From contig JAGVHI010000004.1 of the NCBI GenBank assembly GCA_020056635.1, positions 2,782 through 66,781 on the forward strand: DNA of 64,000 nt, read 5' to 3'. Origin of the DNA: an archaeon. Lineage in GTDB: Archaea; Micrarchaeota; Micrarchaeia; Anstonellales; Anstonellaceae. The position numbers and the translations under genes are program-made. Positions 7,052 to 40,647 of the stretch are shown piece after piece. The notes beneath the pieces were generated by a model. It made no database searches. It worked only from the letters and a program-made list of their open reading frames with translations, and was not told the origin of the DNA. Positions within the stretch are counted from its first letter, which is position 1, and every line of letters starts with the position of its first letter.

Positions 7052-7057
7052 GCGTTA

Positions 7058-10434: not shown

Positions 10435-10508
10435 ATCCGGTATTATTGATTATCTACTGGCGTCCAGTTACTTCTTGTCCCCGTTATTGTTCCTCTGATA
10501 GTTTACGA

Positions 10509-14026: not shown

Positions 14027-14764
14027 TTAGCCTTCTTTTTCCTCCTCATCCTTCCCGAGCTCGGTGAATATGCCCTGCCCGGGGTATACTTTCATCCCCA
14101 CCCCGGAAACGAATTCGAACGGGGAGAGCTTTTGCGAGTGCGTGCTCCCGCGGATTTTTAGCACCTCAAGCGCGTGTATCCGAACGCCCCCCTGCCGCGG
14201 GTGGTGGAGCGCGATTATCACATCAGGTATGTATTCCATCCCGGCGCTCGTGCGAAGCGGAGCGGCGCGTATTTCCTCCCCTGAGAACATTGCGGTGATG
14301 CTCCACTTGCGCACCATCTCAAAAAGCGATATCTGCGCCTCCCTTGCCTGGTACGCGCTCTCAAAAAGCATCGAGTAGGAGGTGAGGGAGTCTATTGCAA
14401 TCCTTTTTGCGTCTATGCTCTTTATCGAGTCGAAAATCAGCCCGCCTCCCTCATCCACCAGCTTTTTCACCTCGTGGGGCTTGTAGGAGACAGTGAGGAA
14501 CATGTTCTCTTCCTCGAGCTTCTCAAAATCCCAGCCGTATGCCTCGAAATGCTTGTTTATTGCATCTTTCGGCTCCTCGAAAGAGAGGAAAAGCCCTGGC
14601 TCCTTGCGGTTAACCGCGCCGTTGTAAAGGAATTGGAGCAGCATCGTGGTCTTGCCGGTTCCGGTGCCCCCCATCACAAGGACTGTGCTGTTGCGCTCGA
14701 ACCCGCCGCCAAGAAGCTCATCAAGCCCTTCGATTCCCGAGGGCATTCGTTCAACACCGGCCAT
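14027..14764 (-). CDS. Single-domain KaiC/RadA/ArlH-like RecA-superfamily ATPase
   Basis: 'GIEGLDELLGGGFERNSTVLVMGGTGTGKTT' (Walker A). The ATG at 14764 sits 24-31 nt downstream of a TATA element, whereas the listed ORF begins at a TTG at 14785. Confidence 0.8.
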   Translation of the reverse strand: MAGVERMPSGIEGLDELLGGGFERNSTVLVMGGTGTGKTTMLLQFLYNGAVNRKEPGLFLSFEEPKDAINKHFEAYGWDFEKLEEENMFLTVSYKPHEVKKLVDEGGGLIFDSIKSIDAKRIAIDSLTSYSMLFESAYQAREAQISLFEMVRKWSITAMFSGEEIRAAPLRTSAGMEYIPDVIIALHHPRQGGVRIHALEVLKIRGSTHSQKLSPFEFVSGVGMKVYPGQGIFTELGKDEEEKEG

Positions 14765-14787
14765 CGCGCTTTCTATCCGCGTCAATC

Positions 14788-15883: not shown

Positions 15884-15898
15884 TGCTGGGTGGTTTGG

Positions 15899-16735
15899 AT
15901 GAAAATAATTGTTTTGATTGCAATATTTGCATTCGGGTTGTTGCTCGTGGGATGCGCAGGGAATCAGCCGCAAACACCCCCTGCAGGCGGAAGCCCGGAG
16001 CAAAATGCGAATCCCAACCAGCAGGCGCAGCCACCTGCCGTGCTTACGCGCGAGGAAATTTGCAATAAAATCCAGGGTGCCGATTACAAGAATTGGTGCC
16101 TGGGATTCGTGACTGGGAAATCATCCTATTGCGATAGCATTGCAGCGGAGAATGACAGGAACGACTGCTATGGGGTCACAGGGATGAATGCAAAGGACGT
16201 TTCAGTATGCGAAAAAATGACGAATGTAAACAAGAAACAAACATGCCTTGCGGTTGCAAGAGACGATATCAAGGAATGCGACGCGACGGACCAGTATGGA
16301 AAAGAGAGATGCGTAAACCAGTTTGCCGCGTATACGAAAGATTTGTCCGTATGCGGGGGCGCAGAGGGCCCAACCAACAGGGAAAATTGCTATTACAACG
16401 TCGCAAAATCGACAGGGGATGAGGATGCCTGCGCACAGTATACTGTAGGTATGAAGGACAAGTGCTACTTTGAAGTTTCAAGGACGATAGATGACATAGG
16501 GCAATGCGGCAATATAGTTGATTCGGGAATGAAAGCAACGTGCACGGCTGTTGCGAAAAAAGACTACTCGCTGTGCCCTGCAAATGACAGCAATTGCATG
16601 GCATTTGTTGCCATGGCGAAATCCGATTGGGGCTATTGCGATGAAACAGCCTTGAAAATGCAATGGGATTCATCGGCAAAGGATGCGTGCTATATGTGGA
16701 TGGCGGTATTCAGGCTTGAGAGGAATCTGGTGTAA
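15899..16735 (+). CDS. Lipobox-bearing Cys-rich repeat protein (~26-aa two-Cys repeats)
   Basis: Signal peptide plus lipobox 'MKIIVLIAIFAFGLLLVGCAG'. Repeated pattern C-x(10-12)-C-[YL]-x2-[VIL]-[AS]-x(4-5)-D-x-[SG]-x-C (e.g. 'CEKMTNVNKKQTCLAVARDDIKEC', 'CGGAEGPTNRENCYYNVAKSTGDEDAC'). Confidence 0.75.
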   Translation: MKIIVLIAIFAFGLLLVGCAGNQPQTPPAGGSPEQNANPNQQAQPPAVLTREEICNKIQGADYKNWCLGFVTGKSSYCDSIAAENDRNDCYGVTGMNAKDVSVCEKMTNVNKKQTCLAVARDDIKECDATDQYGKERCVNQFAAYTKDLSVCGGAEGPTNRENCYYNVAKSTGDEDACAQYTVGMKDKCYFEVSRTIDDIGQCGNIVDSGMKATCTAVAKKDYSLCPANDSNCMAFVAMAKSDWGYCDETALKMQWDSSAKDACYMWMAVFRLERNLV

Positions 16736-16747
16736 GGGGTGGGATTC

Positions 16748-17503
16748 ATGAACAATGGGTTTGTTGCAATTGCCGCACTGCTGCTTTTCGGCTGCTGCTG
16801 CCAGACTATAGGCCAGCCGCCCGCGCTCACTCCTGCGCTTGCCTGCGAGAAAACCAAGGATGCGGACATGATGAACTGGTGCCTTGGAGCCGTTAATTTG
16901 GATTCGGGCTACTGCGACAAAATAGTAGACCCGGGCGGGAGCAAGGGGCAGAAATCGAACTGCTATTTTATCGTGGGAATAAGAAATAAGGACTCGGATG
17001 TGTGCCAGCATGTAACGAAACCCGAGGATATGAATGGCTGCCTTGCGATTGCAGAGGGGAATGTGAGCAGGTGCGATATACTTGAGGACGGTTACAAGGA
17101 GACATGCATAAAATATTTTGCCGCATTCACATTGAATTCGGAACCATGCGCGAACTTGTCAGGAAAGCAGAACTGCTATGAGATGGTTGCAAGGTATTCA
17201 GATGATGCAAGCACATGCGAGATGGATGCGAGCTCGAACAATTCCGGATGTTATTATAATGTGGCAGTGCATGCCATGGATTCGTCAGTTTGCGAGCAGG
17301 TGAGCGATGCGGATTCCAAGAGCACCTGCCTTGCAATCACCAAAAATGACACTTCGCTGTGCCCGAGTGGCGCAAACCATAACTCATGCCTTGGCTATGC
17401 CGCGATGTCGAACGGGGATTATGAGGGGTGCATAAGCGCTACAGGCAATGCAGACCAGTGTTATTTCTACATCGCGACAAAGGGGAAGGAGAGGTTCTTC
17501 TGA
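16748..17503 (+). CDS. Lipobox-bearing Cys-rich repeat protein (paralogue of 15899..16735)
   Basis: 'MNNGFVAIAALLLFGCCCQ' followed by the same repeat ('CQHVTKPEDMNGCLAIAEGNVSRC', 'CANLSGKQNCYEMVARYSDDASTC'). Confidence 0.75.
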   Translation: MNNGFVAIAALLLFGCCCQTIGQPPALTPALACEKTKDADMMNWCLGAVNLDSGYCDKIVDPGGSKGQKSNCYFIVGIRNKDSDVCQHVTKPEDMNGCLAIAEGNVSRCDILEDGYKETCIKYFAAFTLNSEPCANLSGKQNCYEMVARYSDDASTCEMDASSNNSGCYYNVAVHAMDSSVCEQVSDADSKSTCLAITKNDTSLCPSGANHNSCLGYAAMSNGDYEGCISATGNADQCYFYIATKGKERFF

Positions 17504-18260: not shown

Positions 18261-18349
18261 GCGCGCAAGCATGGGATGAAAATTGGGGAAAGATGCGCAA
18301 TAGAGTAAGGGAGAGGGGAATGCGAGACTGAAAAAATAGCGGTTTGGAG

Positions 18350-19231
18350 ATGGAAACAATGGATGAGCTTTCGAAAAAAACCCAGTCCGGGATTCCGGGC
18401 TTGGATGATTTGATTGGGGGCGGATTCCGCAAGAACAGCATAATTTCCGTGAGCGGGTCCACTGGCTCTGGAAGGACTATTTTCGGGCTGCAGTTCCTTA
18501 TGGGAGGGATTGAGCAGGGGGAAGTGGGGATGTACATTTCATTTGACGAGAAGAAGCACTCATTTTACGAGAACATGAAATCCTGCGGATGGAATTTGGC
18601 TGCAATGGAGGCAAAGAAGCAGTTTGTGTTCATAGAATACCCGGTTCACGAGGTCGAGAGCCTGATCGACCAGGAAAGCGGGATTAGGGATTTGATTGAC
18701 GCAGTGGGGGTCGAGAGGGTGGTGCTTGATTCGGTCACGCCGTTTGCGCTCTCTTTCGATTCAGAGGATGACAGGAGAATAGCGCTGGGAAAGCTTGTTG
18801 AGAAGATGAGGAAGTGGCTCTGCACCGTGCTTGTGATTGCAGAGGATACGGGCGAGCACGGGATTGCGGTCCCGAGGACCAAGGCGGGGATAGAGTATGT
18901 TGCGGATGGGTTCATACACTTGTCTTTCATCAAGGACGGGATGAAAAGAAGCAGGTACCTTGAAGTGGTGAAAATGAGGGGGGCTGCGCACATGCACGAG
19001 ATGTTCCCTGCGAAAATAGATGATGAGGGGTTCTCGGTGATTACCGGGAAGGTGCAAGTGAGGAAAAAGGAAAAGCTAAAGCAGGCAGTTGAGGAGAAGC
19101 AGCAGGTGAAAAAGGAGATTATGCCAGAACAGAGGCCCAAGCTGTCAAAATTTGTGCTTCCAAAGAGCTTTGATTATGGGAAAGAGGAAACTGAGTTAAT
19201 TGAGGAAGAGGAGAAAGATGACATCATTTAA
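18350..19231 (+). CDS. Single-domain KaiC/RadA/ArlH-like RecA-superfamily ATPase with an acidic C-terminal tail
   Basis: 'GIPGLDDLIGGGFRKNSIISVSGSTGSGRTIFGLQF' (Walker A variant GSTGSGRT), 'RVVLDSVTP' (Walker B-like) and 'YLEVVKMRG'. Confidence 0.8.
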   Translation: METMDELSKKTQSGIPGLDDLIGGGFRKNSIISVSGSTGSGRTIFGLQFLMGGIEQGEVGMYISFDEKKHSFYENMKSCGWNLAAMEAKKQFVFIEYPVHEVESLIDQESGIRDLIDAVGVERVVLDSVTPFALSFDSEDDRRIALGKLVEKMRKWLCTVLVIAEDTGEHGIAVPRTKAGIEYVADGFIHLSFIKDGMKRSRYLEVVKMRGAAHMHEMFPAKIDDEGFSVITGKVQVRKKEKLKQAVEEKQQVKKEIMPEQRPKLSKFVLPKSFDYGKEETELIEEEEKDDII

Positions 19232-28552: not shown

Positions 28553-31500
28553 TCATTCATTGTTGGGCTGGGTTGGAGGCTGCTGTTTTTCAATCTCCTC
28601 TAAAGCCTCATCAATGACATGCTGGTCCCAGCCCTCTTCTTTCAGCCTGTCAGTTGTGTATTCGCGCGGGAAGCCCAGCTCCTGCGAGTGCCGCATATAT
28701 GCCTTGATCTCCGCAAGATGCTCCTCCTGCGATTTTATTTTCCGCGCCTCCTGCTTCTTCCTCATTGAGGAGAGGGTGATTGCGGCAAGGCCCGAGAGGA
28801 GAGTGAGTGAGACAATAACCTCGAGCGCAAATTGGGGTATCCGCACTTCCTGCTGCTGGGGCAGCGGTGCGGGCAAGTTAGGAGAGGAGATTGGCGGATT
28901 TAGGATTCGGAGCGCCTGCTCTGAAATTTTGCCGAAGAGCCAGGCGATGGTGCCGCTGGAGCCGTTGCCCCCAAGCGGCGGAGTGATGAGCCCGAACGGG
29001 TCCGATCCCTGGTTTGCAAGCGAGCAGTTGGATAGGAGAGGGGGCATCCCGTCCTCTGTCCCGCATGAGCTCAAGTCTGTGCACAAACGCTCCTGTGTCC
29101 TGTTCTGCAAGCAGGGGCCCCAAAGCGTGCATTCCCAGTTTGGCGTGCAGCCAGAGCCGCCCCTTCCGCCCCCTCCTCCGCCGGAGCTGCCCGAACCGCC
29201 AGAACCTCCCCCGGGGCCTGATGGCGCGCATGCGGCGCACGGGCCGCCGCAATCAACCCCAGCCTCGCCGTTATTCTGAACCCCGTCTGAGCATGTGGGG
29301 CACGCAGCGCATGAGCCTCCGCAATCGATTCCAGTTTCCTGCCCGTTCAGCACGCCATCAGAGCAGGTGGGGCATGTGATGCATGAGCCTCCGCAATCAT
29401 TGCCGGTCTCGTCCCCGTTTTGCATTCCATCGGTGCAGGAGGAGCTTGAGCCGCATGCCCAATAGAGCGTGGGCCGGTCGCTTGCAGTGCCGCAGGAATT
29501 TTCATCGTAGCAAGTGCGTGAGAGCTGCCCGCTCCCTTCACAATCTTCTTCCCAGCCCGAGCATATCCAGGATTCGGGGCAGATGCCATCAAGGCGGAAG
29601 AAGCCAACTTCGAATGGGAGCAGCGTGGGCGAGAACGTAGCGCCCGAATGCGGGATTATTTCGTAGCCCGTTGCAGTGACCTTGGTGATGCCCCCTATAT
29701 TCTCGTTGAAGGTGATTGTTGGGGAAACCGAAACGTTGCGCTTGTTGATAACTGTCATTGCCCTGTGCGGTGAGCTCACTGCGAATATTTCCAGCAAATC
29801 GTCCTGCGAGCCTGCTGCAGCCATCTGGGCGCCGTAGGGGTTGAGAGAGCTGAACAGCTTGCGAACGCCAAACATCGGAGTCGTTGAGAAGTTGTCAAGC
29901 GGCGAGGCTGACCACATGCCGTATCCGTACATGTGCTTGACGCCCCGGTCATGATAAACGCCCGGATAGCCCGACGTGTCGGCAACGTAGCGTGGGTCAG
30001 GGGTGTTGTAGCCGCGCGAATTCCCCTCAAAGTGCATCTCGTGGGTTGCGTTGCTCCTTGCAAGCCAGTTTAGCATTGAAGCCCCCCACATTGCGCCGTA
30101 GTCCCCTTTGAGCGGGTTGAACTCCGGTACGTACATTATTGGCGGGATGCAGGTGTCGCAGAGCGCAAAATTGTATTCCGAGTATGCCATCAGGGGTGTG
30201 TCGTTTCCTGGTCTGAATTGCCTGATTTTTGAGTAAGCCCAGTTCGGGACCACGTAGCCGTAATAGTAGGTGTTGTTGTCGTAGTCGTGCAGCGACACGA
30301 AATCCGCATTCGTGCGGTTCAGGAATTGCGCAAGCTGCGGGTAGGAATCGTCCGCCATTATGCCTGCCGAATCCCATCCGCCGACTTTGGCGGTTGGGAC
30401 GCGCGATTTTATTGCGGAATATGCGGTGTTGAAGAAATTTATGAAATTTTCCGGGCGCGAATCAGACTGGTTGAAGTCTGCCCAGTCGTTCGGGTGATTA
30501 TGGCCCGAGCATCCTTCCTTGCCGTCAACCTCGTTCCCTATTGCCCAGTACCAATCGCTGAAGTTGCCGCAGAAATTCCAGGTCCCGTTCGTGCATAGGC
30601 TGTAGAAATGCTCGGTTACATCGGCAAAGTAGCCCGCACACTGGGCGAAGTCGGTCGGGACGCTGTAGTTTTCGCCGCAGTGGTTCACTCTGGTAACCAT
30701 CATTTCGCCAGGGCACCCGACCCCGTTGGAATCCTCAAAATTCACGTAGGGGGTTGCGCTCAAGTTGAGAAGGACGTGCCTGATGTCGCGCTCCAGGTTG
30801 GTGTAGTTGTACTGGCCGCTTCCGCTCCAGTTGTACGGCACCGTGTTGTAAAGGATGCTCTCGGGTCTTGCGCCGTATGAGTTTATGTACGGGTCAGGAC
30901 CGGGCCAGAAGGCCGCGCCAAACGGGTGTATCCTCACGCGAATGTAGGAAGTGCCCACATCGCGGTAGTGCTGGAGTATCTCGGGTGAGGTCCAGTAGTT
31001 TTCGTCCTTGCCGTTGTAGCCGTAGTGCAGCCCGACCTGCTTTGTGCCCCTTGAGAAATCCACGCTTGCAATAGGGGTTATGCTGAAGTTTCCGGAGAGC
31101 AGAACGCTGTTTATGCTGATTAGGTGGCCCCCGTGAGTGCAGGCGCTTGCCTTGCGCAGCCGGAGAGTGTGGCTCCCTGCAGTTATTGGGATGGTGAGGT
31201 TGAGGTAGGAATAACTGCTGCCGTTCACGTCAAAGACTGCCTGCTGCGCCCCGTCCAGGTCCACTGCAAGCCGCCGAGGTTCAGGCGGGCATAATGAGGC
31301 GCCGCCTGCGGCGGATATTGAAACTGATGCAGAGGAATCGGAATCGAAAGTGATGTTCATGGAGTGGTTGAGGACCTGCCCGTACTGCGGGACGGTGCCT
31401 ATGTAAAGCGCGCGCATCCCATACTGGCCGGCAATCTTGCCGCCCCACAGCATTTCGTAAGAGTGCGTTTCATGGGCCTGCTCCGAAGGGGGGCGAGTGC

Positions 31501-34500
31501 TTGCGGATATCAGGGTTGTGCCGCAGAGGCGGGTGGGGAAATAGATTGTCCCCTGGGATGAGGAGTCGAGCAGCATGTCCTGGGGCAGGCCGCAGCTTTC
31601 TGCCCGTACATAGTATGCTGTTGATGGTCTGAGGTCGGCGAGCAGGATGCTGGTTGCGCCGACGTGCGTGAAAGGCAGCAGGGTGACGTTCTCAAGCTCG
31701 TTCCCGTACGTGGAGAAAACTGCCGCATAGTCGCGGGTTGCAACGCCCTTGGCAGTCCCGTCGGCTGATGAGAGGCGTTCAAAGAACATTGCAGGCGAGC
31801 TGACCTGGCTGCTGTTGAACACATAGAGCACGTTTAGGAAATTGTCAAACGTGCTTGGCACTGTCGGGGATATCTCTATCCTCCACTTTCCAGCATGCTC
31901 GTCCGGCCCCAGAGCAGACGTGTTCGGGTAGTTCCTGCCGTCAACCCAGAACTCGTAGCCGCTGCCGCCTATGCGGGTTAGGTTCCAGCCGTTTGGGCCC
32001 GGAAGGACGGTCTGCACCGCAAGCCCGATGTAGTTTGATTTTATGAAAGTGGTGTTGCTGTAATTGCCGTTGAAAGCCGTGCCGTTGAAAACTTCTATGT
32101 GGCCGGGCACGTCTGAGGAGATTAGGGACCCGACTATGGTGGGCTGGTCCTGGAAGTGCATCACGAAGCTTTTCCTGAAAGACGGGTCGGTTGAGTTGAC
32201 GCGGTCAAATATCACAATGTTCCATACGTTTAGGTTGCTCCAGTTTGACGGCGGGGCATGGTATGGGGAGTACAGGTTTGCTGGCTTTCCATCCTTGAAA
32301 AACACTATTTCGCGCGTGAAATTTGAGAGCTTGGAGCGGTTGTAGGAAAGCGTCGCATCCCCGGAAATATATAAGTAATTTTCGTTTGCTTCATAGTGCG
32401 GTATTGAGCCTGCGTCGTATGCGGGGGTGTTTGTGAGCTGGTCGTACGTGAATATGCGGGGGAACATCATCTGCCCGCCATCATTCGAAACGTTGCGTAT
32501 TATTCCTGAATCGTTCCAAAGCAGGATGTTGCCCTCCCCGTCGCTGAATGACTCGTTCGGGTCATAAACTGTTATTGTGTTGTGCGCTATTGTGCGCTGG
32601 TAGTAGTTGCTCCAGTGAGGTGAGCCGTAACCTCCTGCAGGGCCGTATGCGCCGGAATCCACAACCTGGTCGCCCAAGTAATAAAGCGAGAAGCTGTTTG
32701 CGTCGCGGTGCAGGTGGCCTGAGCGCTGCTTGGGGTTGTTTGAGAAGGTGAGCCAGACCGAGTCATTGCCCCAGCTTGTGCGCGAAACAAGCGTGCCGGA
32801 ATTGCGGGAGAACCAGTCCAGTGGAAGTTCCGTGTAATTCCTCCTGTTTGCAGTCTCGTCAAACCAGAGCAGTTCCCAGAGCCGGTTGTACCAGCGGTAT
32901 GTCTGCTCAAAATTGTTCTGGTGCGTTGAGATGAACCAGTTCGCATATTCGTTGTAGGGCGAATTTCCGTAGTAGGATATTATGGAGGGGGCAGTCTGCC
33001 CAAGCGAGGGAGGGGGGCCGTAAACGTCGTAGTCGCCCCAGCTTGCCTTGTAATCGTTTGGCTTGAGCAGGTAGGCGTTGTGGTTGATTACTCGCAGCTG
33101 CAGCCAGGGGTTCTGCGCAAACCAGTCAGTGCCTGTTGCAGTTGTGAGCTTTGCGGCCATGGAAGTGTGAGTCGGCATTCCGGAGAAGCTGTAGCCTGTG
33201 CCCCAGTTCCATCCCCCATTGTCAGAGCCGGTGTAATTATAGATTCGGTAGAACTCAAGGAAGCGGGCGTATGCGATATCAGTCTGGTTGAGCACCAATT
33301 CAGCAAGCGTTGCGTTCTGTGCCTCAAGGTCAGGGTCGTACGCGAGCGCAAGCAGCGCGGTCGCCCAGCCGGAGTTCACCTCGAAAGAGTGGCTGAACAC
33401 GTTTGCGTCGCTCTCGTCCGCAAAATCACGCCAATGGTAGTAGGTTGAAAAGCGCGCGAGTGCCGTACTGAAGTTGGCGCGCTCCTCAGAGGAAAGGTTG
33501 TTGTAGAGCCAGTCGTACGCAAGCCCGGATTCCGAGCTCCATGCAGTGTAGAAATATTCCGCATCGTCCTTTCCAGAAAGCGCTGTGCTCGGATCGTCGT
33601 CCCAATAGTTCCATGTCGCATTGTACGTTGCAAGCAGCGTGTTTAGCTCGCGGAGCATGAATTTCGAGCGGTTAAGGTATGTTTCGTTGTCCGTCATCCA
33701 GTATAGGAACGTGCCTATCCGGATAAGCGAGCCCCATGAGCCGCCGTATGAAGTCGGGTAGCCCTCTCCACAGACATTTGCCTGCGAGAGGTTGGATGTG
33801 TTTAGCAGCACTGCGACCCAGTTTGCCTGGTTTGGCGAGGACATGTTGCAAGCCCAAGTGGCACGGCCGTTTGTCTGGTTCTCGTATTCTGATTTGAGCA
33901 CGTTGAAATCGTCGGTTAGGAGCGGCGTACCCAAATCGAGCTTCTGCCTGATGACTGGAATCATTTCCTGCGTCACGTAAAGGCGTGGGTGGTCCTCACG
34001 AATCGATATATTGTGCCCGGGGGACTGGAAGTTCATGATAAGGAATTTTGAGCTCACATTGCCGCATTGGATGTAGTATGTGTTGAGGTTGTTAGTCTCG
34101 TCCGACTCGTTCACCTCGAGCCTTGCATCCGCCTCAAGCACAAGCTCAAGCACCCCATCATGCATGCAGCGCAAATTCAATTCATCAATATCCGATTCGC
34201 CCGAAGCAAGCATTGGGGCATCCGCATGCGCAACCTCCTGGCCGTCAAAAGTCGCGTAAGTCGAGGATTCCGAGGCATTTGCGCTGCCCCTGTTCGTTGT
34301 GGTGAGATTGAAGGTGAAAGTCGAGTTCAGCTCGTGGGGGATATAGAATTCCTCTTCGCTTGCAGTCGCAACCAAATCTGGCATCGGGGGGAGGCAGTCC
34401 GCATAGCCATCCCAATGGTTGTTCGATTCGTTGGTCTCGTTTTGCTCGTTTGCCGCATCAACCGACAGTTGCAAATCAAGCCTTCCCTCCTGCCTGCAAG

Positions 34501-36040
34501 AAAGCAGGAGTTCGTGGCTGAGTACTGAATCCGGGGCAAGAGGCGGGATTGAAAGCTCGGTTGGGGAATCCTCGCCTATTTCAATCAGGAGGGACGACTG
34601 GGCGCTCTGCGCGGTCCCAAGGTTCGTAATTGTGAGAGGAAGGCTGAAGAGTTCGCCATATGGCTGCGGCTCGAGAAGCGAAGAGTCATCAACCAGCAGG
34701 CTCAGGTCCGGCGAGCCTGTGCATGATGGGGGGACCAAGAGTATGTTGCACACTTTGCTGCAGCATTCGGCTGGGGAGGAGCATGCGTTCCCTGCTGAGA
34801 GACATGAGTTGCACGTGCTTGTGGCAGGGTCGCAAACGCCCGAGCAGCAGTCCGCACTTGTGGAGCATGCGATTCCGTCTTCAATGCATTTTGAGCATTT
34901 GCCTTCAACACAGAGCAGGGAGGAGCAGCAGCCGTCATTGGAGGAGCAAGCGCTTCCTTCGATTGCGCAGCACGCCCGCATCGGCTTCACTCCGCTTGCG
35001 CACGAAAGCCCTTCGCAGCATGGCTCGGATCTCGAGCAGAGGCCGCCGCCCTTGGCGCACTTGCAAGGGAGCAAAATTTCGGATGAAATAGTGGAAAGCA
35101 AAGCGGGCTGCCTTGCAATCTGATTGGATGCTGCTGCAAGGTACGAAAGCTCGCTGCACTTGAATGGGAGGAGAATGTCCCTTGATTCTCCGCTTTTGAG
35201 CATTGGGACTGCCACAAGGAGCTCTTCTGTGCAATCGGCTTGCTGGCAATCCGAAGGGCTCCAAGTCAGCGTTGCGGAGGAAGGGGGGGATGGGCCAAGC
35301 CCGATATTGGTTGCTTGGAGGATGACCTGCGAATTTGGCTGCTCGCCCTGGCTTGGGGAAAGCGTGATTATCACTTCGGGGGGCTGGGAGCAGGAGAGCT
35401 TATTCCCGCTGCCTGTGCAGAGCAGCTCCCCGCAGCATTCCTGGCTGGTTTTGCAGGATTTGCCTTCGCCCCCGCACCCGCCGCAGAGCCCGTACCTGCA
35501 TTTTTGCGAATCGCAGCATTCCAAATTCGATTTGCATATCTCACCCTGCGAGTTGCACGAGCTTGGCGGGGAGAGGAGGATTTCCTCGCTTGGCGGGGTT
35601 TTTGAGGTTGGGGCGCCGGCCTGCTCAAGCGAGTAGGAGAACCGAAGGTCGATTGGAATTAGAGATGGGCCATAATCCGGAATATCTGCAGGGATTGAAA
35701 CCTTGGCTGCGGAGCCTGGCGAAAGAAATGCAGGGGAATCGAGCTTGATTTCCTGTGCTGTGCCCCCTTGCGCAGTGATTGAAACCTGCTCAAGCGAAAT
35801 CGCCTGCGTGCCGCTATTCTTAATGAGCAGAATTACGCCCCCCTGCACAAGCTTTGCGTCGGTCACAGCAAGCGGCTTTTGCGTTATCCAATAAAGTTTT
35901 GATTGCGCCTGCTTTATCGGGGAGGCCGAGGAAGCCGCCTGGTTTATGAGTGTGGCTGAGATGAGGGCAATCACCAAAACTGCGGAGAAGACAGCTAGGA
36001 ACTCGGAAGAAGACTGACCCCTCGATTCAGACCTCCCCAT
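28553..36040 (-). CDS. Giant surface protein (2,495 aa). Order: class III signal peptide, conserved N-domain, Cys modules, CARDB-like domains, heparinase II/III-like region, clan GH-A-like barrel, Cys-repeat stalk, G/S linker, C-terminal TM anchor and cytoplasmic tail.
   Basis: 'MGRSESRG|QSSSEFLAVFSAVLVIALISATLI'. 'SGHLHRDANSFSLYYLGDQVVDSGAYG...QRTIAHNTITV' is a heparinase II/III C-terminal hallmark. 'WYWAIGNEVDG' is a GH-A NE-type motif. There are three copies of 'C-[ST]-DG-x-[QL]-N-x(1,2)-E-[TA]-G-x-DCGG-x-C'. The TM segment is 'FALEVIVSLTLLSGLAAITLSSM'. Confidence 0.9.
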   Translation of the reverse strand: MGRSESRGQSSSEFLAVFSAVLVIALISATLINQAASSASPIKQAQSKLYWITQKPLAVTDAKLVQGGVILLIKNSGTQAISLEQVSITAQGGTAQEIKLDSPAFLSPGSAAKVSIPADIPDYGPSLIPIDLRFSYSLEQAGAPTSKTPPSEEILLSPPSSCNSQGEICKSNLECCDSQKCRYGLCGGCGGEGKSCKTSQECCGELLCTGSGNKLSCSQPPEVIITLSPSQGEQPNSQVILQATNIGLGPSPPSSATLTWSPSDCQQADCTEELLVAVPMLKSGESRDILLPFKCSELSYLAAASNQIARQPALLSTISSEILLPCKCAKGGGLCSRSEPCCEGLSCASGVKPMRACCAIEGSACSSNDGCCSSLLCVEGKCSKCIEDGIACSTSADCCSGVCDPATSTCNSCLSAGNACSSPAECCSKVCNILLVPPSCTGSPDLSLLVDDSSLLEPQPYGELFSLPLTITNLGTAQSAQSSLLIEIGEDSPTELSIPPLAPDSVLSHELLLSCRQEGRLDLQLSVDAANEQNETNESNNHWDGYADCLPPMPDLVATASEEEFYIPHELNSTFTFNLTTTNRGSANASESSTYATFDGQEVAHADAPMLASGESDIDELNLRCMHDGVLELVLEADARLEVNESDETNNLNTYYIQCGNVSSKFLIMNFQSPGHNISIREDHPRLYVTQEMIPVIRQKLDLGTPLLTDDFNVLKSEYENQTNGRATWACNMSSPNQANWVAVLLNTSNLSQANVCGEGYPTSYGGSWGSLIRIGTFLYWMTDNETYLNRSKFMLRELNTLLATYNATWNYWDDDPSTALSGKDDAEYFYTAWSSESGLAYDWLYNNLSSEERANFSTALARFSTYYHWRDFADESDANVFSHSFEVNSGWATALLALAYDPDLEAQNATLAELVLNQTDIAYARFLEFYRIYNYTGSDNGGWNWGTGYSFSGMPTHTSMAAKLTTATGTDWFAQNPWLQLRVINHNAYLLKPNDYKASWGDYDVYGPPPSLGQTAPSIISYYGNSPYNEYANWFISTHQNNFEQTYRWYNRLWELLWFDETANRRNYTELPLDWFSRNSGTLVSRTSWGNDSVWLTFSNNPKQRSGHLHRDANSFSLYYLGDQVVDSGAYGPAGGYGSPHWSNYYQRTIAHNTITVYDPNESFSDGEGNILLWNDSGIIRNVSNDGGQMMFPRIFTYDQLTNTPAYDAGSIPHYEANENYLYISGDATLSYNRSKLSNFTREIVFFKDGKPANLYSPYHAPPSNWSNLNVWNIVIFDRVNSTDPSFRKSFVMHFQDQPTIVGSLISSDVPGHIEVFNGTAFNGNYSNTTFIKSNYIGLAVQTVLPGPNGWNLTRIGGSGYEFWVDGRNYPNTSALGPDEHAGKWRIEISPTVPSTFDNFLNVLYVFNSSQVSSPAMFFERLSSADGTAKGVATRDYAAVFSTYGNELENVTLLPFTHVGATSILLADLRPSTAYYVRAESCGLPQDMLLDSSSQGTIYFPTRLCGTTLISASTRPPSEQAHETHSYEMLWGGKIAGQYGMRALYIGTVPQYGQVLNHSMNITFDSDSSASVSISAAGGASLCPPEPRRLAVDLDGAQQAVFDVNGSSYSYLNLTIPITAGSHTLRLRKASACTHGGHLISINSVLLSGNFSITPIASVDFSRGTKQVGLHYGYNGKDENYWTSPEILQHYRDVGTSYIRVRIHPFGAAFWPGPDPYINSYGARPESILYNTVPYNWSGSGQYNYTNLERDIRHVLLNLSATPYVNFEDSNGVGCPGEMMVTRVNHCGENYSVPTDFAQCAGYFADVTEHFYSLCTNGTWNFCGNFSDWYWAIGNEVDGKEGCSGHNHPNDWADFNQSDSRPENFINFFNTAYSAIKSRVPTAKVGGWDSAGIMADDSYPQLAQFLNRTNADFVSLHDYDNNTYYYGYVVPNWAYSKIRQFRPGNDTPLMAYSEYNFALCDTCIPPIMYVPEFNPLKGDYGAMWGASMLNWLARSNATHEMHFEGNSRGYNTPDPRYVADTSGYPGVYHDRGVKHMYGYGMWSASPLDNFSTTPMFGVRKLFSSLNPYGAQMAAAGSQDDLLEIFAVSSPHRAMTVINKRNVSVSPTITFNENIGGITKVTATGYEIIPHSGATFSPTLLPFEVGFFRLDGICPESWICSGWEEDCEGSGQLSRTCYDENSCGTASDRPTLYWACGSSSSCTDGMQNGDETGNDCGGSCITCPTCSDGVLNGQETGIDCGGSCAACPTCSDGVQNNGEAGVDCGGPCAACAPSGPGGGSGGSGSSGGGGGGRGGSGCTPNWECTLWGPCLQNRTQERLCTDLSSCGTEDGMPPLLSNCSLANQGSDPFGLITPPLGGNGSSGTIAWLFGKISEQALRILNPPISSPNLPAPLPQQQEVRIPQFALEVIVSLTLLSGLAAITLSSMRKKQEARKIKSQEEHLAEIKAYMRHSQELGFPREYTTDRLKEEGWDQHVIDEALEEIEKQQPPTQPNNE
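29225..29440 (-). repeat. Three tandem ~72-nt (24-aa) coding repeats inside the giant gene
   Basis: aa 2201-2272: 'CTDGMQNGDETGNDCGGSCITCPT / CSDGVLNGQETGIDCGGSCAACPT / CSDGVQNNGEAGVDCGGPCAACAP'. The DNA copies are visibly similar (e.g. gcatgagcctccgcaatc at about 29310 and about 29381). Confidence 0.85.
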
Positions 36041-36126
36041 TGGGGGAAGATAATGGATAGATTGTTTTTAATGCTATTCTCGATGGAACCGAGAGAAAAA
36101 TGTCTCGGGATCGACAATCTCCTGAA

Positions 36127-36200
36127 CGACAAAAAAACTATCGTTCAGTCGAAAAAAAACTATCGTTCAGTCGAAAAAAAACTATCGATGCCTCGAAAAC
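36127..36200. repeat. About 3.4 tandem copies of a 22-bp unit (tcgaaaaaaaactatcgttcag)
   Basis: Units at 36127-36148 (diverged 5' end), 36149-36170, 36171-36192 (diverged 3' end) and a partial unit at 36193-36200 that runs into the att-like repeat. Confidence 0.9.
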
Positions 36201-36347
36201 CAGGTGAGGGAATCGAGTGCTAGGAGGTTAGGTTTTTCTCTCTCTACCTCATAAAAGCCCTATTCTTTTGCCCTCTTTCGCCCTGCTAGGCTGCCAATTA
36301 GGGTGAAACTACCCCGAAGAATGGCTTATTTACTCCCTGAAATTCAT

Positions 36348-36686
36348 CTATATCCAGCTTTGTTGTTTGGTTTTCCGCTTTGCCTTGCGTTTCTTGGGTT
36401 TATAGACACCGAATTTTTTTTGTGCAGCCGCAAGTCCTAATTTATTCTTTAGTCTGTTGCAGCTTCGATGCGCCCACTTAACCGTCTTCCCACCTTTCGC
36501 AAATGCCCGCACATGGTCTAACTCCGCGGCATCAAATGAAGTTATGCGACGAAAGCAAATATGACACATGTGGGAGTATAACATCCAGAGTTTCAGCTTT
36601 AATGCGGGAGATATTGCCTTGCGCTTTTTCTTCTCTTTGGGTTTAAACGGATTCCGTTTGAACGGACTATTTATTTTCATAACCAT
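36348..36686 (-). CDS. HNH endonuclease-family protein with basic N- and C-terminal tails
   Basis: 'CHICFRRITSFDAAELDHVRAFAKGGKTVKWAHRSCNRLKNK' shows a C-x2-C ... D-H ... H-x2-C-N HNH/ββα-Me signature. Confidence 0.7.
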   Translation of the reverse strand: MVMKINSPFKRNPFKPKEKKKRKAISPALKLKLWMLYSHMCHICFRRITSFDAAELDHVRAFAKGGKTVKWAHRSCNRLKNKLGLAAAQKKFGVYKPKKRKAKRKTKQQSWI

Positions 36687-37545
36687 ACCAACCACCTCGA
36701 TTTACAGTAATACTACAATTACCAAGAATACTTTCATCTAAAAATATTTCAGAACGATCCATATAAAATTCGTTGCTCGGTACGCCTTTCTGAATGTGGA
36801 AATATATTCCTTGTTTTGCTTCATTAAGTGTATCTTCATATGATAAGGTTCTTTGCTTATTGCTCTCGATTTTAGCAGTTAAACATCCTTCTTCATCACA
36901 TGCATAGATAGAAAGTTCCTTGCCAATAAATATTTGACTTCCTGCCAAGCCTGTTCCACAACGAAAGATAATTAGTGCAGTACTGCGATTTGCCCCTCTA
37001 ATATCCATGATAATACTAACTTTTTTAGTGGATACCGTATTATTCATAAATTTTGAGAATGGTACTGTTTCATTTGCAGGTTTTGCAAGTTGTTTAGATA
37101 AACTTTCTCCTTGGAAAAAGAGAAGAAAGAGAAATTCACCTATTCCTAAAATTATTAATAATATGAATATAGATGCGCATACCCAATACATACCATCCCA
37201 AATCCAACTGGGCAAGCCAGCTTTGCGTTTGCCTTCTGTTAGGCATTTAACTTCATATAGAAGGTCTGCACGCGTATTTATTCCACCTATCAGAACCGCT
37301 ATAACGACCACAAATGGAAGAAAGAAAAAAGATATGATTGTTTTTAGCCATTTAGTATCTGATTTAAATTCTAAAAATTGGAGATTGTTATCTATTTTAG
37401 CTTTGACGCGCCTAAAAACATACTCCCGCGTAAAACTGCAACTCCCATCAGAATAATGTATTATGTCCTTGAAACCATACTTACCATCCAAGACTGAGAA
37501 TTTGACTGATGATGCGTGTGGAATTTGGTCTGAACGCTCCTTCAT
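36667..37545 (-). CDS. Membrane protein of unknown function (2-3 TM plus a C-terminal soluble domain) within the islet
   Basis: 292 aa with TM segments 'TIISFFFLPFVVVIAVLIGGI' and 'MYWVCASIFILLIILGIGEFLFLLFF'. GGGGTGGAG precedes the ATG, and codon usage is AT-rich. Confidence 0.55.
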   Translation of the reverse strand: MKERSDQIPHASSVKFSVLDGKYGFKDIIHYSDGSCSFTREYVFRRVKAKIDNNLQFLEFKSDTKWLKTIISFFFLPFVVVIAVLIGGINTRADLLYEVKCLTEGKRKAGLPSWIWDGMYWVCASIFILLIILGIGEFLFLLFFQGESLSKQLAKPANETVPFSKFMNNTVSTKKVSIIMDIRGANRSTALIIFRCGTGLAGSQIFIGKELSIYACDEEGCLTAKIESNKQRTLSYEDTLNEAKQGIYFHIQKGVPSNEFYMDRSEIFLDESILGNCSITVNRGGWYGYENK

Positions 37546-37733
37546 TACTCCACCCCATAAGGGTTAAACAAACAGGGCTTTATACGCCTTTCTCTAAGAC
37601 GTGCTAGGCTGCCTTATTTACTGAAAGACTATTTCAAAACAAAGACTAAAATATTGGTTTTATGGCTTTTACGTCGGTAAATCGGATAAACTGAACCTGG
37701 CGTTTTCTATTCTCCGACGTAAAAATAACTTTA

Positions 37734-37825
37734 AGCCAGGTGAGGGAATCGAACCCCCCTAAGCCGCTTTCCGCACTTGCAGATAAATGCTGCAGGCGGC
37801 TGCATAGCCTCTCTGCCAACCTGGC
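37734..37825 (-). tRNA. tRNA-Cys (anticodon GCA) with a 21-nt intron at the canonical 37/38 position
   Basis: Folded by hand. Acceptor GCCAGGT/ACCTGGC, discriminator U73 (a Cys identity element), anticodon stem GCCGC/GCGGC, loop CTGCAG^[intron]^A, T stem GGGGG/CCCTC with loop TTCGATT. The intron, catttatctgcaagtgcggaa, is at 37769-37789. Confidence 0.85.
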
Positions 37826-37879
37826 GAATAGAATAACTGATAAAAATTAGGGGAAACTAGGTTAAAAAGGGTTTAGCGC

Positions 37880-39055
37880 CTAGGCAGGTTTGCCGAAGAC
37901 CGCTCCATATCCGTGCTCCGTTGCAACAAATGATGCGGCTGCAACTACGAGCGCTGCGCGCTCGCCTGCGGCGACCATCCGCTCTTCTTGTTCGCATGTG
38001 GGATAGCCCTCTCCTGGAACTGGCCCGATTTTTATGTAAATTGCCCCAGTCTGCATTAGGGCGGAACTATTTTCCATATTGATTTTTGCACCTTCCAGGT
38101 TCAGCATGATGCCTTCCATTTCTGTTGATTTGCAGCCGTGGTCATCATGGAGGTGATGTATCAGATGCGTGGACATGTGCTCGGTATAGAGATAATCCTT
38201 TGAAACTGCATTTCCGATTTCGATCTTAGGGCTTGAGCTGCCACCCATAATAGCTTGGCCTGTCCGGAAAAGGGTATCGACCAAACTCGGAGTACTCCTT
38301 GTTTTTGCCCACGCAAATCCCCCTACATTAATGATTTTGAAACCGTCATCATAGGAGAGGAACTCGCGCACGAATTCCTCGAAGTGTGACTTGCCGGCAA
38401 GGCCCTTGAGTGCATCTGCAACCCGGGCGATTTTTGAATACAGCATCGTGCCAAGCGGCTTGTTCACCGCGCTTGCGATAGCATCGGCACGGGCAATATG
38501 ATTTTCGGCAACTACCAAGTCCCCAGACTCAAGCCAGGGGGCCGTAGGATCTGCGCTGTTTTTTCCAAGCAGGCCGCCTGACGTGCCCACCCGCACGATG
38601 ATTGTGCCATTATGCCCCAGTTTTTTCCCATTGAATGTGTATCCGGCCGTGCAGGAATAACCTGCGATTTCCCGGACGTATATTTGGGTGGGCGGAAACC
38701 CCATTTCAGTCGAGGCTAGGAGGATCGGCACTTGATAGCCGTTGAAAGAGTAGGTGCCTACGATAACTGGGACCCGTTCGCGGTCGTTTCGCCGCCCGGT
38801 GAGATTCGGAACTATTTCATCAAGGACGATGGCGTCTCTGAGAGCGAGGGCATCATAAGCGTCTTCCACACGGTTCCTTGAGCCAAAAATGATGGCAAAC
38901 GGCGGCCCGCCTGCAGGGCTGAAGTACCGCGCTATTCTGGAATCAGATTCCCACAATTTCTTGTTGAATATGGCGATAAGGGCAGTGTGCGGCCCGCGGA
39001 CATCGGAATTGGGCTGTTTTGTGTCGGTGCGGGTCCTAGAGATAATCATAAGCAT
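37880..39055 (-). CDS. Nucleoside phosphorylase-superfamily (PNP/UDP-type) protein, unusually long
   Basis: 'STEMGFPPTQIYVREI', 'IIVRVGTSGGL', 'SGDLVV' and 'STEMEGIML' parallel the conserved phosphate/ribose-binding motifs of PNP_UDP_1-family enzymes. Confidence 0.55.
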   Translation of the reverse strand: MLMIISRTRTDTKQPNSDVRGPHTALIAIFNKKLWESDSRIARYFSPAGGPPFAIIFGSRNRVEDAYDALALRDAIVLDEIVPNLTGRRNDRERVPVIVGTYSFNGYQVPILLASTEMGFPPTQIYVREIAGYSCTAGYTFNGKKLGHNGTIIVRVGTSGGLLGKNSADPTAPWLESGDLVVAENHIARADAIASAVNKPLGTMLYSKIARVADALKGLAGKSHFEEFVREFLSYDDGFKIINVGGFAWAKTRSTPSLVDTLFRTGQAIMGGSSSPKIEIGNAVSKDYLYTEHMSTHLIHHLHDDHGCKSTEMEGIMLNLEGAKINMENSSALMQTGAIYIKIGPVPGEGYPTCEQEERMVAAGERAALVVAAASFVATEHGYGAVFGKPA

Positions 39056-39163: not shown

Positions 39164-40234
39164 ATGGAAGTCGTTCCAGCAACCGTGCTTGATGCGTCAG
39201 AGCCTGTTTCCAAAGCCGCGTCCGAGATTACGAAGAACGGGACCCTCGTGATTGTGACAAAGGGGAAGAGGTACCACGGGATTATTGATGACAGGGCGCT
39301 TCGCAATTCGAGGAACGACACCTCGAAAACCAAGTGCGAGGCGCTCTGCGAGCGCGCGCCGTTCGTGAAGATAAATGACACGCTAGTTGAAATATGCAAG
39401 GCATTTTTTGCCGGGAGGTTCAGCGCGCTTCCCGTCGTGAGCGGGAATACCATAGAGGGCGTGATAACCCGGGCTGATGTGATAAAGCTGCTGCTTGCAG
39501 AAAAGCTGCTTGATGGGAAAAAGGTGTCCGAGGCAATGAGCTCCCCTGTGCTCACGATTGCGCACAATGCGGGGATGGGCACTGCGCGAAAGCTTATGAG
39601 GGAGAAGAACGTGCGGCGGCTCGTGGTGACCAAGAACGAGAGGCTTGCAGGGATAATATCGACTTTCGATTTGGCATCTATAGCGGCGCATGAGCGCGAT
39701 GTGAGGCCGTCGGGAATGAGCGAAAAGTACAGCGCAGAGAAGGAATGGGTGGAGCGGTTCATGCGAGATTCGATTGAAACCATCACGCCAGACGCGCCCC
39801 TAGGCGACGCGGCAAGGAAAATGCTGGACACGAAAGTTGCGTCCGTGGTCGTCGTAGGCGGGGGGAAGGCAGTCGGGATAATCACTGCAAAGGACCTGTT
39901 CGAAACTGCGCTGGTGCTAAAGGAGGCGGACAGGGTTTTCATTTCCGGCTTGCACGACTTGGAGAAGGAATATTACCACGAGGTGCACGAGGAGTGCGAG
40001 AAAACGCTTTCCAAGCTCTCGAAAATCGAGAGGATTGGCTCGCTTGCGCTGCATATCAAGAAATACGGGAACCAGTATGCCATACATGCGAGGCTGAATG
40101 CAAGGCAGCTCACAACCGCAAGCGCAAACGGGTTTGATTTGCACGCATGCGTCGCGCAGGTGCTGGAGGAATTAAAAACACAGGTGGAAAAAAGGAAACC
40201 TAACAAGATGCATGAAAGAGGGCATAGAAGATGA
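39164..40234 (+). CDS. Protein with four CBS domains and a C-terminal HPF/RaiA-like (ribosome hibernation factor-like) domain
   Basis: Four CBS-like units (e.g. 'GIIDDRALR', 'GVITRADVIKLL', 'GIISTFDLASI', 'GIITAKDLFE'). The C-terminus 'VFISGLHDLEKEYYHEVHEECEKTLSKLSK...ALHIKKYGNQYAIHARLNARQLTTASANGFDLHACVAQVLEELKTQVEKRK' follows the HPF/RaiA pattern. Confidence 0.7.
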   Translation: MEVVPATVLDASEPVSKAASEITKNGTLVIVTKGKRYHGIIDDRALRNSRNDTSKTKCEALCERAPFVKINDTLVEICKAFFAGRFSALPVVSGNTIEGVITRADVIKLLLAEKLLDGKKVSEAMSSPVLTIAHNAGMGTARKLMREKNVRRLVVTKNERLAGIISTFDLASIAAHERDVRPSGMSEKYSAEKEWVERFMRDSIETITPDAPLGDAARKMLDTKVASVVVVGGGKAVGIITAKDLFETALVLKEADRVFISGLHDLEKEYYHEVHEECEKTLSKLSKIERIGSLALHIKKYGNQYAIHARLNARQLTTASANGFDLHACVAQVLEELKTQVEKRKPNKMHERGHRR

Positions 40235-40647
40235 AAAAAGCCCAGGTGAGCGCGGAGCTCCTAATAATTGTCGGGTTCATCGCGCTTGTGATGGTCCCGG
40301 TCCTTTTCTCAATATATGTTCGGGGCGGGGAATACAAGGATAGGATAGGGGTATCGCAGGTTAACATTGCCGCGGGAAGGATTGCGCAGGCAGTGGATTC
40401 GGTAGGGTTCCTCGGGGGCAGGGCGAAAATCGTGCTTGAGGTGCAGATGCCAAAGGGCGTGAGCGCCAGGGCGCAAGGAAAGGAGATCCTTTTCTCATTT
40501 GAGAACTCGGGGCAGAGGAACGACATTGTGAAAACAACCCGGTTTGCGATGAGCGCTCCAGACCTTGATAGGCTCAATGCGACCGGGACTTATTTTGTTG
40601 AAGTGATGAATGAGGATGGGATTGTGTCGCTCGATGTAAGGGAGTAG
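40231..40647 (+). CDS. Small class III signal peptide (archaeal type IV pilin-like) protein
   Basis: 'MKKA|QVSAELLIIVGFIALVMVPVLF' has Q+1, E+5 and a hydrophobic helix (DUF361-type Q-x-S-x-E motif). ATGA overlap with the upstream CBS gene. Confidence 0.6.
   Translation: MKKAQVSAELLIIVGFIALVMVPVLFSIYVRGGEYKDRIGVSQVNIAAGRIAQAVDSVGFLGGRAKIVLEVQMPKGVSARAQGKEILFSFENSGQRNDIVKTTRFAMSAPDLDRLNATGTYFVEVMNEDGIVSLDVRE

Follow-up and report, generated by a model that had tools for sequence, protein, structure and literature searches.

Pilins that carry additional functional modules are well known in bacteria, where such modular pilins, including some that bear peptidases, are widespread (more than 1,200 InterPro architectures) and common in the ultra-small bacteria of the candidate phyla radiation (CPR), the longest one cited being 860 amino acids (aa) long (PMC8179133). 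Here we describe a possible archaeal counterpart, encoded in a stretch of 64,000 nucleotides (64 kb; hereafter the window) of contig JAGVHI010000004.1, from an archaeon of the Micrarchaeota: a 2,495-aa protein (the big protein) that combines a pilin-like N-terminus with a putative polysaccharide lyase and a putative glycosidase. As is the case for PilB and PilC of Streptococcus sanguinis, functional modules would have been grafted onto a small class III pilin module; the bacterial proteins are predicted to be located at the filament tip, and peptidase modules have already been predicted among them. The big protein differs from them in being archaeal, in having a signal of the QxSxE/DUF361 type, in being about three times longer than the longest cited (860 aa), and in having two carbohydrate-active enzyme (CAZyme) modules, a C-terminal transmembrane (TM) anchor and a cytoplasmic tail. 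We consider it rather probable that the archaeon has it at the cell surface as an N-glycosylated enzyme of several domains that degrades polysaccharides, built as an archaeal 'modular pilin'.

Class III signals are not confined to filament subunits in archaea either. The Sulfolobus/Saccharolobus bindosome proteins (GlcS, AraS), along with other binding proteins, proteases and redox proteins with predicted class III signal peptides (SPIII), resemble the big protein in that a class III signal mounts non-filament proteins of nutrient acquisition (PMC3387779; PMC2910488; bioRxiv 10.64898/2026.04.22.720090). An earlier note on this DNA, made by a model from the sequence alone, had named the bindosome as the known exception to the use of such signals on structural subunits, which is too narrow, as FlaFind had already predicted class III signals on proteases and redox proteins of archaea (PMC2910488) and as bacterial modular pilins have been described (PMC8179133). 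Bindosome proteins are ordinary-size binders working with ABC transporters, whereas the big protein carries a lyase and a glycosidase on a long stalk and has kept a recognisable pilin head domain. The Epd pilins (DUF361/PF04021) that EppA processes in Methanococcus maripaludis, and the 'system 1' filament loci, which occur in methanogens and DPANN archaea, share with the window the Q at +1, the S-x-E pattern and a platform split into two genes. Epd pilins are small structural subunits, whereas the big protein falls below the PF04021 cut-off and has V rather than L at +9.

As for size and enzymatic content, the SPEARE proteins of Ca. Nanohaloarchaeum antarcticus are reportedly giant surface proteins of a DPANN archaeon that consist of many domains, enzymatic ones included, and for which an action on the host has been proposed. 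Their domain content (protease, adhesion, nuclease) is said to differ from that of the big protein, and we know of no report of a pilin-type N-terminus among them. Class III signals on non-filament archaeal proteins, adhesins at filament loci and bacterial modular pilins are all already known. Our literature search found no pilin-borne lyase or glycosidase in DPANN, and no description of an archaeal pilin module combined with a polysaccharide lyase and a glycosidase, of this size, or with an added C-terminal anchor. Since no second organism with the same fusion was found, the claim to novelty is kept modest.

The big protein starts with MGRSESRG-QSSSEFLAVFSAVLVIALISATLI, which places R at -2, G at -1, Q at +1, S at +3 and E at +5 of the predicted cleavage site. 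Compared with the QXSXEXXXL consensus, residues +1 to +9 (QSSSEFLAV) include Q1, S3 and E5, the L at +9 being replaced by V at a position that is conserved merely as a hydrophobic residue across the family alignment. The signal is probably of the archaeal class III type known as QXSXEXXXL/DUF361, which is processed by EppA in Methanococcus (PMC2910488, PMC3387779). The signal is followed by a hydrophobic stretch of ~20 residues (hydropathy peak of 2.73, at aa 9-39). RGQSSS also fits the FlaFind-type pattern, [KRDE][GA][ALIFQMVED][ILMVTAS]x3. The match is not due to chance: when the window is translated in all six frames, the motif [KR]GQ.[ST].E turns up just three times, always at residues ~6-13 of an open reading frame (ORF) and always followed by a hydrophobic helix. 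The three ORFs are the big gene, the 1,304-aa gene downstream of it and a 221-aa ORF further away.

Homology with small pilins points in the same direction. With the first ~150 residues of these three paralogues as a profile, 11 small pilin-like proteins of 149-241 aa were retrieved from 5.8 billion clusters, two of them annotated as PF04021 and one coming from Ca. Micrarchaeota; the PF04021-annotated P0005 and P0007 (149 aa) match it with E values of 6.5e-21 and 5.5e-18. In the reverse direction, a hidden Markov model (HMM) made from nine foreign small pilins alone matches only these three of the 671 window ORFs, among them the big ORF (E 6.9e-19, residues ~4-117) and the 221-aa pilin (E 1.4e-32). 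Q9 (+1) and E13 (+5) are invariant in the alignment with the small pilins, which also includes a YW...P.A motif after the helix. The AlphaFold 2 (AF2) model of this module (pLDDT 79) consists of an uninterrupted 42-residue helix (aa 11-52) and a beta-sandwich, and its sole Foldseek match below 1e-3 in the PDB is the archaeal type IV pilin of Pyrobaculum calidifontis (8fk7, E 4.6e-5), with FlaF, an archaellin and the Sulfolobus AAP pilin ranking lower. The prepilin-type N-terminus read by the earlier note is thus borne out by motif, paralogues, small-pilin homology and predicted fold alike, and we conclude that the first ~140 residues make up a pilin module that bears a signal of class III type, of which the cleavage is predicted.

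The 1,304-aa neighbour is a tandem paralogue of the big gene. The two proteins are 33% identical over aa 1-677 of the big protein (BLASTP, E 3e-105) and collinear over their first ~670 residues, beyond which the paralogue carries a different head, a TIGR03790-family domain of unknown function (NCBIfam match) with which a sequence search of the PDB found nothing. No C-terminal TM helix is seen in its hydropathy profile. This comparison suggests that interchangeable heads have been mounted on one pilin-type handle. Among ~60 relatives of the lyase module or of the glycosidase module, not one starts with a pilin-type N-terminus, and the pilin front end is therefore taken to be a graft instead of a part of the enzyme families. 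Within 1.2 Mb of related Micrarchaeota filament loci (a sample of +/-10 kb around the filament ATPase gene, and as such no census), ORFs with the class III motif encode proteins of 104-436 aa, the two window genes being the only giants; searches of these loci with the C-terminal tail, the stalk, the lyase and the glycosidase matched only the in-window paralogue and two further loci (L001, discussed below, and L082).

The first of the two putative enzymes resembles heparinase II (HepII, or HepB) of Pedobacter heparinus (CAZy polysaccharide lyase family 21, PL21; PDB 2FUQ/3E80). In a phmmer search of the PDB, aa 839-1480 align with residues 133-717 of 2FUQ (E 1.7e-43), and the similarity covers all three HepII domains (alpha-toroid, central beta-sheet and C-terminal beta). 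The Pfam model Hepar_II_III_C matches aa 1092-1164 above its cut-off (E 6.7e-11), while the NCBIfam HepB model matches with an E value of 5.8e-53 and 179.9 bits, against an equivalog cut-off of 600 bits; the module is thus a relative and no equivalog. Its predicted catalytic residues (H884, Y950, H1109) and predicted Zn ligands (H1111, D1128, H1153) are kept by 21-25 of the 25 sequences in an alignment. Once the offset of 25 between the 2FUQ chain and the HepII precursor has been applied, His202, His406, His408, Asp425 and His451 of HepII align with H884, H1109, H1111, D1128 and H1153, and Y950 lies in a near-invariant Tyr column of the 25-sequence alignment that corresponds to HepII Tyr257. 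In HepII, His202, Tyr257 and His406 are reportedly catalytic and His408, Asp425 and His451 reportedly bind Zn (Shaya et al. 2006/2010).

The lyase is predicted to act by Zn-dependent beta-elimination at uronic-acid linkages. Unlike HepB, with which it shares the three-domain similarity and the counterparts of the catalytic and Zn residues, it forms one module of a membrane protein of 2,495 aa from an archaeon. An N-terminal HPR motif is common to it and its homologues. Its closest relatives, at most 34% identical, come from bacteria (Deltaproteobacteria, Poribacteria, Myxococcota) and have ordinary signals. A recent transfer from bacteria appears unlikely, as the relatives are bacterial yet this distant and as the GC content is not deviant.

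The second putative enzyme is preceded by a module (aa ~1557-1655) that resembles a carbohydrate-binding module (CBM). The closest homologues, P0014 and P0015, match Pfam CBM60 over the aligned stretch (E 1.1e-17 and 5.8e-10). The module itself gave no match to CBM60 (PF16841), only weak ones to CBM_6 (0.1) and CE2_N (0.079); a beta-sandwich is predicted for it by AF2. An exhaustive search of 1.84 billion representatives with the glycoside hydrolase (GH) module that follows yielded 23 relatives at E <= 1e-3, and most of those tested pass the Pfam GH39 model: P0016, P0017, P0022 and P0031, for example, match the query with E values of 8.5e-22 to 2.3e-4 and GH39 with E values of 7.7e-15 to 1.2e-18. 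The two motifs by which the earlier note had recognised a clan GH-A enzyme, WYWAIGNEVDG and MAYSEYNF, contain the predicted acid/base (N1836-E1837) and the predicted nucleophile (E1955), which are invariant in 21 sequences. The former motif starts at nucleotide 30521 as the note had it, and ends at 30553 rather than 30547; the sequence strings it quoted are all present at the residues it gave.

In the AF2 model of this module (pLDDT 75, pTM 0.76), which has long low-confidence insertions, the catalytic N-E and E are located at the ends of model strands 292-295 and 411-418, that is, beta-4 and beta-7. Foldseek ranks the GH39 xylosidase 2bs9 first (E 1e-16), followed by GH39, GH30, GH79, GH51 and GH44 structures. 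From alignment and model together, aa ~1657-2151 would be a divergent GH39-like clan GH-A enzyme, which has in common with GH39 enzymes (such as the beta-xylosidase XynB1, PDB 2BS9) and with GH30, GH79 and GH51 enzymes a barrel with a beta-sandwich, the N-E pair after beta-4 and the Glu in beta-7. It differs from GH39 enzymes in its Pfam score below the cut-off, its long insertions and the CBM60-like module in front. Family GH39 also includes alpha-L-iduronidase. Both the lyase and the GH39-like module are distant from characterised enzymes, and their specificities may be new.

Between the pilin head and the lyase lies a Cys-rich stalk (aa 160-440), with weak matches of the conotoxin and Dickkopf type and collinear with that of the neighbouring paralogue. 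It is followed by two CARDB domains, which the earlier note had already pointed out and to which PF07705 matches over two stretches (93.1 bits against a cut-off of 22.7, E 1.4e-26). A 405-aa ORF with CARDB (118..1335, +) resembles the big protein's stalk in a tblastn comparison (4.8e-10) and would be a further member of the surface-protein repertoire. Beyond the glycosidase, the C-terminal Cys-rich region includes three tandem 'C.DG.QN..E.G.DCGG.C' repeats (aa 2210-2290, nt ~29171..29413). Over a short stretch these are 66% identical to the repeats of an unrelated 1,786-aa bacterial protein (P0002), and they look like a Cys-rich extracellular repeat that is widely shared and matches no clear Pfam model here. 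N-x-S/T sequons, reported as frequent by the earlier note, number 57, about twice the 26.7 +/- 4.7 found in shuffled sequences, and their density (2.28 per 100 aa) is 8-fold that of the cytoplasmic proteins of the window (0.27). They are restricted to aa 500-2400, in keeping with a protein of which the middle would be extracellular and the two ends membrane-proximal.

Three features escaped the earlier note: the paralogous neighbour, the pilus-assembly genes in the window, and a second hydrophobic segment (aa 2401-2426) with RKKQEARK directly after it and a 69-aa tail. This segment is the only strongly hydrophobic one besides the N-terminal helix. Because the big protein has this C-terminal TM helix and cytoplasmic tail besides its N-terminal helix, it is probably anchored at both ends. 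The tail has a sole homologue, in a 198-aa protein (P0006) encoded on an ENA contig of 1,145 bp (L001, 454..1050). In P0006 a homologue of the pilin module is fused to a homologue of the TM helix and tail, with nothing between the N-terminal pilin half and the C-terminal half. Its composition suggests that the two ends of the big protein belong together; P0006 itself could be a natural 'ends-only' form, a deletion form or an assembly artefact.

Type-IV-filament assembly genes are found in the same window. Their ATPase shares 72-76% identity with its counterparts in metagenome-assembled genomes (MAGs) of Micrarchaeota, Micrarchaeia and Ca. Anstonellaceae, in agreement with the view of the earlier note that the DNA comes from a reduced-genome archaeon, here a DPANN member of the Micrarchaeota. 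The split platform matches the archaeal filament 'system 1' of methanogens and DPANN (bioRxiv 10.64898/2026.04.22.720090). A 608-aa Pro/Ala-rich protein is also encoded in the filament locus. In the 1.2 Mb of related loci the same ATPase adjoins a major pilin of the QxxxE class; a major pilin of the KGQAAMEYLMTYGW type, which adjoins the ATPase in relatives, was not found at the equivalent place in the window. The locus as a whole (5091..11978, -) has an upstream gene for a 489-aa coiled-coil/winged helix-turn-helix (wHTH) protein, and two KaiC-family ATPases are encoded near it (14027..14785, -; 18344..19231, +). The window also encodes purine and pyrimidine synthesis genes, which agrees with the description of Anstonellales (PMC8561730).

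A number of results weigh against the modular-pilin reading. On the side of the filament, a C-terminal TM helix would hinder extraction into a fibre and argues against free incorporation; to our knowledge, such an anchor is no feature of known pilins, and tethering at both ends probably fits poorly with simple incorporation into a pilus fibre. The big gene is located 18-26 kb from the assembly genes, outside their operon. We infer the dependence on pilus machinery or a prepilin peptidase that the earlier note had proposed, against two null results: motif search and Pfam scans revealed no A24 prepilin peptidase ORF or GxGD[VI]K motif within the window, and PF04021 gave no match at E <= 10 to the N-terminus of the big protein (queries of 40 aa and 161 aa). 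The paralogues are below the cut-off of that model as well, the small pilins of the window scoring 21.5 and 16.9 bits against 23.7, and the pilin fold match is modest (TM-score 0.42-0.49). On the side of the enzymes, the Pfam scores are above the cut-off for CARDB and Hepar_II_III_C and below it for the glycosidase, GH39 (PF01229) scoring 17.7-20.0 bits against a cut-off of 26 (E 0.0017 at 17.7 bits). The lyase substrate is not readable from family names, since the HepB score is far below the equivalog cut-off. Comparative support for the fusion is limited to the in-window paralogue and the 198-aa 'ends-only' relative: no orthologue of this architecture was found in GTDB species representatives (searched with peptides from the whole protein) or in JGI metagenome contigs (N-terminal alignment scan).

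Some of these points would also suit an ordinary type I surface enzyme, in which the N-terminal segment would be a Sec signal or signal-anchor (maybe cut by signal peptidase I, SPase I, after ...AASSAS), the C-terminal TM helix the real anchor and the pilin front a relic without any link to a pilus. Many archaeal surface and S-layer proteins are anchored in just this classic way, by a C-terminal TM helix and a positive-inside tail; AASSAS is a stretch of small residues lying after the hydrophobic core, and the silence of PF04021, the lack of a prepilin peptidase in the 64 kb and the position outside the assembly operon are all in keeping with it. Yet conservation with bona fide small pilins falls on the [KR]-G, Q+1, S+3 and E+5, and the region where the Sec c-region and the putative SPase I site would lie is unconserved in the family alignment. 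The beta-sandwich right after the helix has also been kept and is homologous to small pilins, and the helix is predicted to be unbroken and pilin-like over its 42 residues. Moreover, the paralogue has the same front end without a C-terminal TM helix, so that the N-terminal helix must be the anchor there. We regard a plain type I enzyme as unlikely, while giving it serious weight.

It could also be argued that the big protein is an adhesin rather than an enzyme, its lyase-like and GH-like modules having been kept as glycan-binding domains for attachment to a partner or a surface. Large adhesin-like proteins do accompany archaeal type IV filament loci (PMC4858521; bioRxiv 10.64898/2026.04.22.720090), the CARDB/Ig and CBM-like modules would suit such a role, and both catalytic modules are strongly divergent from characterised enzymes. 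The conservation of all six HepII catalytic and Zn positions, and of both clan GH-A Glu residues and the preceding Asn at the ends of the predicted strands beta-4 and beta-7, argues against this, however, and we regard it as very unlikely.

The reading frame itself is that of a real gene. It is a single unbroken ORF of 7.5 kb (2,495 codons), and no longer form is possible because in-frame stops lie 9 and 11 codons upstream of M1. The NCBI gene call on the same contig (P0036) gives an identical 2,495-aa product. The JGI call starts at L435 and yields 2,061 aa named 'predicted GNAT family acetyltransferase', a name that can probably be traced to the cytoplasmic tail, which has a weak Acetyltransf_CG-like match (E 0.15). 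The signal, the pilin head and the stalk are all missing from it together with the rest of the first 434 residues. The long form is the right one, because the similarity to the neighbouring paralogue stays collinear across residue 435. Proteins of this sort are easily overlooked in surveys when a start is chosen that drops the signal and the product is labelled an acetyltransferase. That the gene should be an assembly chimera or a decaying pseudogene uniting unrelated pieces is scarcely credible: the contig is metagenome-assembled, the two gene calls disagree and both ends recur together only in a 198-aa ORF from a contig of 1.1 kb, but the 7.5-kb frame is uninterrupted, sequon enrichment and domain order are coherent throughout, GC is uniform (0.54-0.57), and a chimera is ruled out by the collinearity with the paralogue across the JGI start together with the uniform ORF.

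Under the modular-pilin reading, the protein would be inserted with its N-terminus in the cytoplasm, and MGRSESRG would be removed by a prepilin peptidase of the EppA/PibD type, leaving Q9 at the start of the hydrophobic alpha-1 helix, E at +5 and the pilin beta-sandwich after it. Through this pilin module the protein might then associate with the 'system 1' filament machinery, which is Epd-like and encoded ~20 kb away, by contacts with its subunits and platform; the place of docking could be the tip of a filament, its base, or a membrane-proximal assembly that resembles the bindosome. The rigid, disulfide-rich knottin/CARDB stalk would present the Zn-dependent lyase, the CBM-like module and the retaining GH39-like glycosidase, and lyase and glycosidase could jointly depolymerise an acidic, uronate-containing glycan. 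With the C-terminal TM helix and cytoplasmic tail fixing the other end in the cell's own membrane, the enzyme would stay cell-bound. The analyses above document the domain identities, the conservation of the catalytic residues, the homology of the N-terminus to pilins and its fold, the two hydrophobic anchors, the organism and the neighbouring machinery; we infer the cleavage by a peptidase, the interaction with filament machinery, the topology and the substrate. Because the C-terminal TM helix probably holds the second end, an arrangement at the tip of a short filament or a bindosome-like one is favoured over free entry into a long fibre.

Micrarchaeota and other DPANN archaea are believed to lead a life attached to other cells, and the question is how the envelope of a partner is breached or used as food. 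A pilin-type handle with two carbohydrate-cleaving enzymes would be a concrete, clonable candidate for doing so. A host-envelope glycan as the target is speculation; the cell-bound scavenging of an acidic polysaccharide from the environment would suit the findings just as well. It is doubtful, and we give the idea little weight, that the big protein is a tip (initiator) subunit serving as an enzymatic 'drill' on the acidic envelope glycan of a partner, its C-terminal TM helix and tail keeping it connected with the symbiont, and with the paralogue as a second, interchangeable tool on the same handle. If so, it would open the host glycocalyx for cell-cell contact, and the symbiont might sense or control this engagement from within. 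The modular-pilin reading as such would carry the bacterial idea over to archaea and to CAZyme cargo, and would widen the bindosome idea from binding proteins to depolymerases.

Table 1. Features of the big gene and of related loci, with positions in the 64-kb window and the basis of each assignment
Feature	Position	Strand	Basis
Whole gene	28553..36040	-	2,495 aa + stop
Class III leader MGRSESRG (aa 1-8)	36017..36040	-	predicted cleavage G8/Q9
Predicted pilin alpha-1 helix (aa 9-52), hydrophobic core aa ~14-33	35885..36016	-	hydropathy, AF2, alignment
Pilin-like beta-sandwich head (aa 53-140) with YW...P.A motif	35621..35884	-	AF2, Foldseek, homologues
Stalk (aa 160-440): knottin-like Cys-rich repeats and Ig/CARDB-like domain	34721..35563	-	Cys histogram, weak matches, collinearity
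Two CARDB domains (aa 443-660)	34061..34714	-	Pfam PF07705
Putative heparinase-II-like (PL21-like) lyase, three domains (aa ~680-1490)	31571..34003	-	phmmer, NCBIfam, Pfam, conservation
CBM-like beta-sandwich (aa ~1557-1655)	31076..31372	-	homologues P0014/P0015, AF2
Putative GH39-like clan GH-A (beta/alpha)8 barrel and C-terminal beta-sandwich (aa ~1657-2151)	29588..31072	-	homology, AF2, Foldseek
C-terminal Cys-rich modules (aa 2160-2365) and Gly/Ser linker	28946..29563	-	sequence
C-terminal transmembrane helix (aa 2401-2426)	28763..28840	-	hydropathy peak 2.04
Predicted cytoplasmic helical tail (aa 2427-2495, 69 aa)	28556..28762	-	positive-inside residues
AT-rich box ATAGCATTAAAAAC	36061..36080	-	~25-40 nt upstream of the ATG of the big gene
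Tandem paralogue, 1,304 aa	24527..28441	-	class III signal, pilin head, Cys-rich stalk, CARDB; TIGR03790-family head
Type-IV-filament assembly genes	5091..10434	-	Pfam T2SSE, T2SSF
T2SSE ATPase	8884..10434	-	Pfam 4.8e-40
Platform genes (T2SSF)	6140..7051 and 5091..6143	-	Pfam 1.3e-17 and 7.3e-15
221-aa pilin, same signal and head family	54785..55450	-	Pfam Class_IIIsignal E 2.3e-4 (sub-threshold)
138-aa pilin-like ORF (MKKAQVSAELL...)	40231..40647	+	Pfam Class_IIIsignal E 0.0062 (sub-threshold)

Four further ORFs of the window have lipobox-like N-termini, that is, a hydrophobic stretch and then G-C-[ACIT]-G (15890..16735 and 16739..17503, +; 47108..49891 and 49898..50572, -). A Pfam search with them matched nothing; they are candidate archaeal lipoproteins or surface proteins.

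The AT-rich box in front of the big gene has a similar counterpart upstream of the 1,304-aa paralogue and is a possible TATA box/B recognition element (BRE). Further upstream, ~90-150 nt from the start codon of the big gene, lies a perfect 22-nt tandem repeat (36131..36187, 2.6 copies, unit AAAAAAACTATCGTTCAGTCGA on the + strand), which may be a regulatory element. The repeat is located within a stretch of low GC content (36041..38000, GC 0.41 against ~0.55 in the flanks) that also encodes a 292-aa membrane ORF and a small basic Cys/His-rich ORF (36348..36695, -). The latter, for which a Pfam search matched nothing, has an HNH-like D-H...H..C-N pattern. This low-GC stretch may be a mobile or foreign insert beside the big gene.

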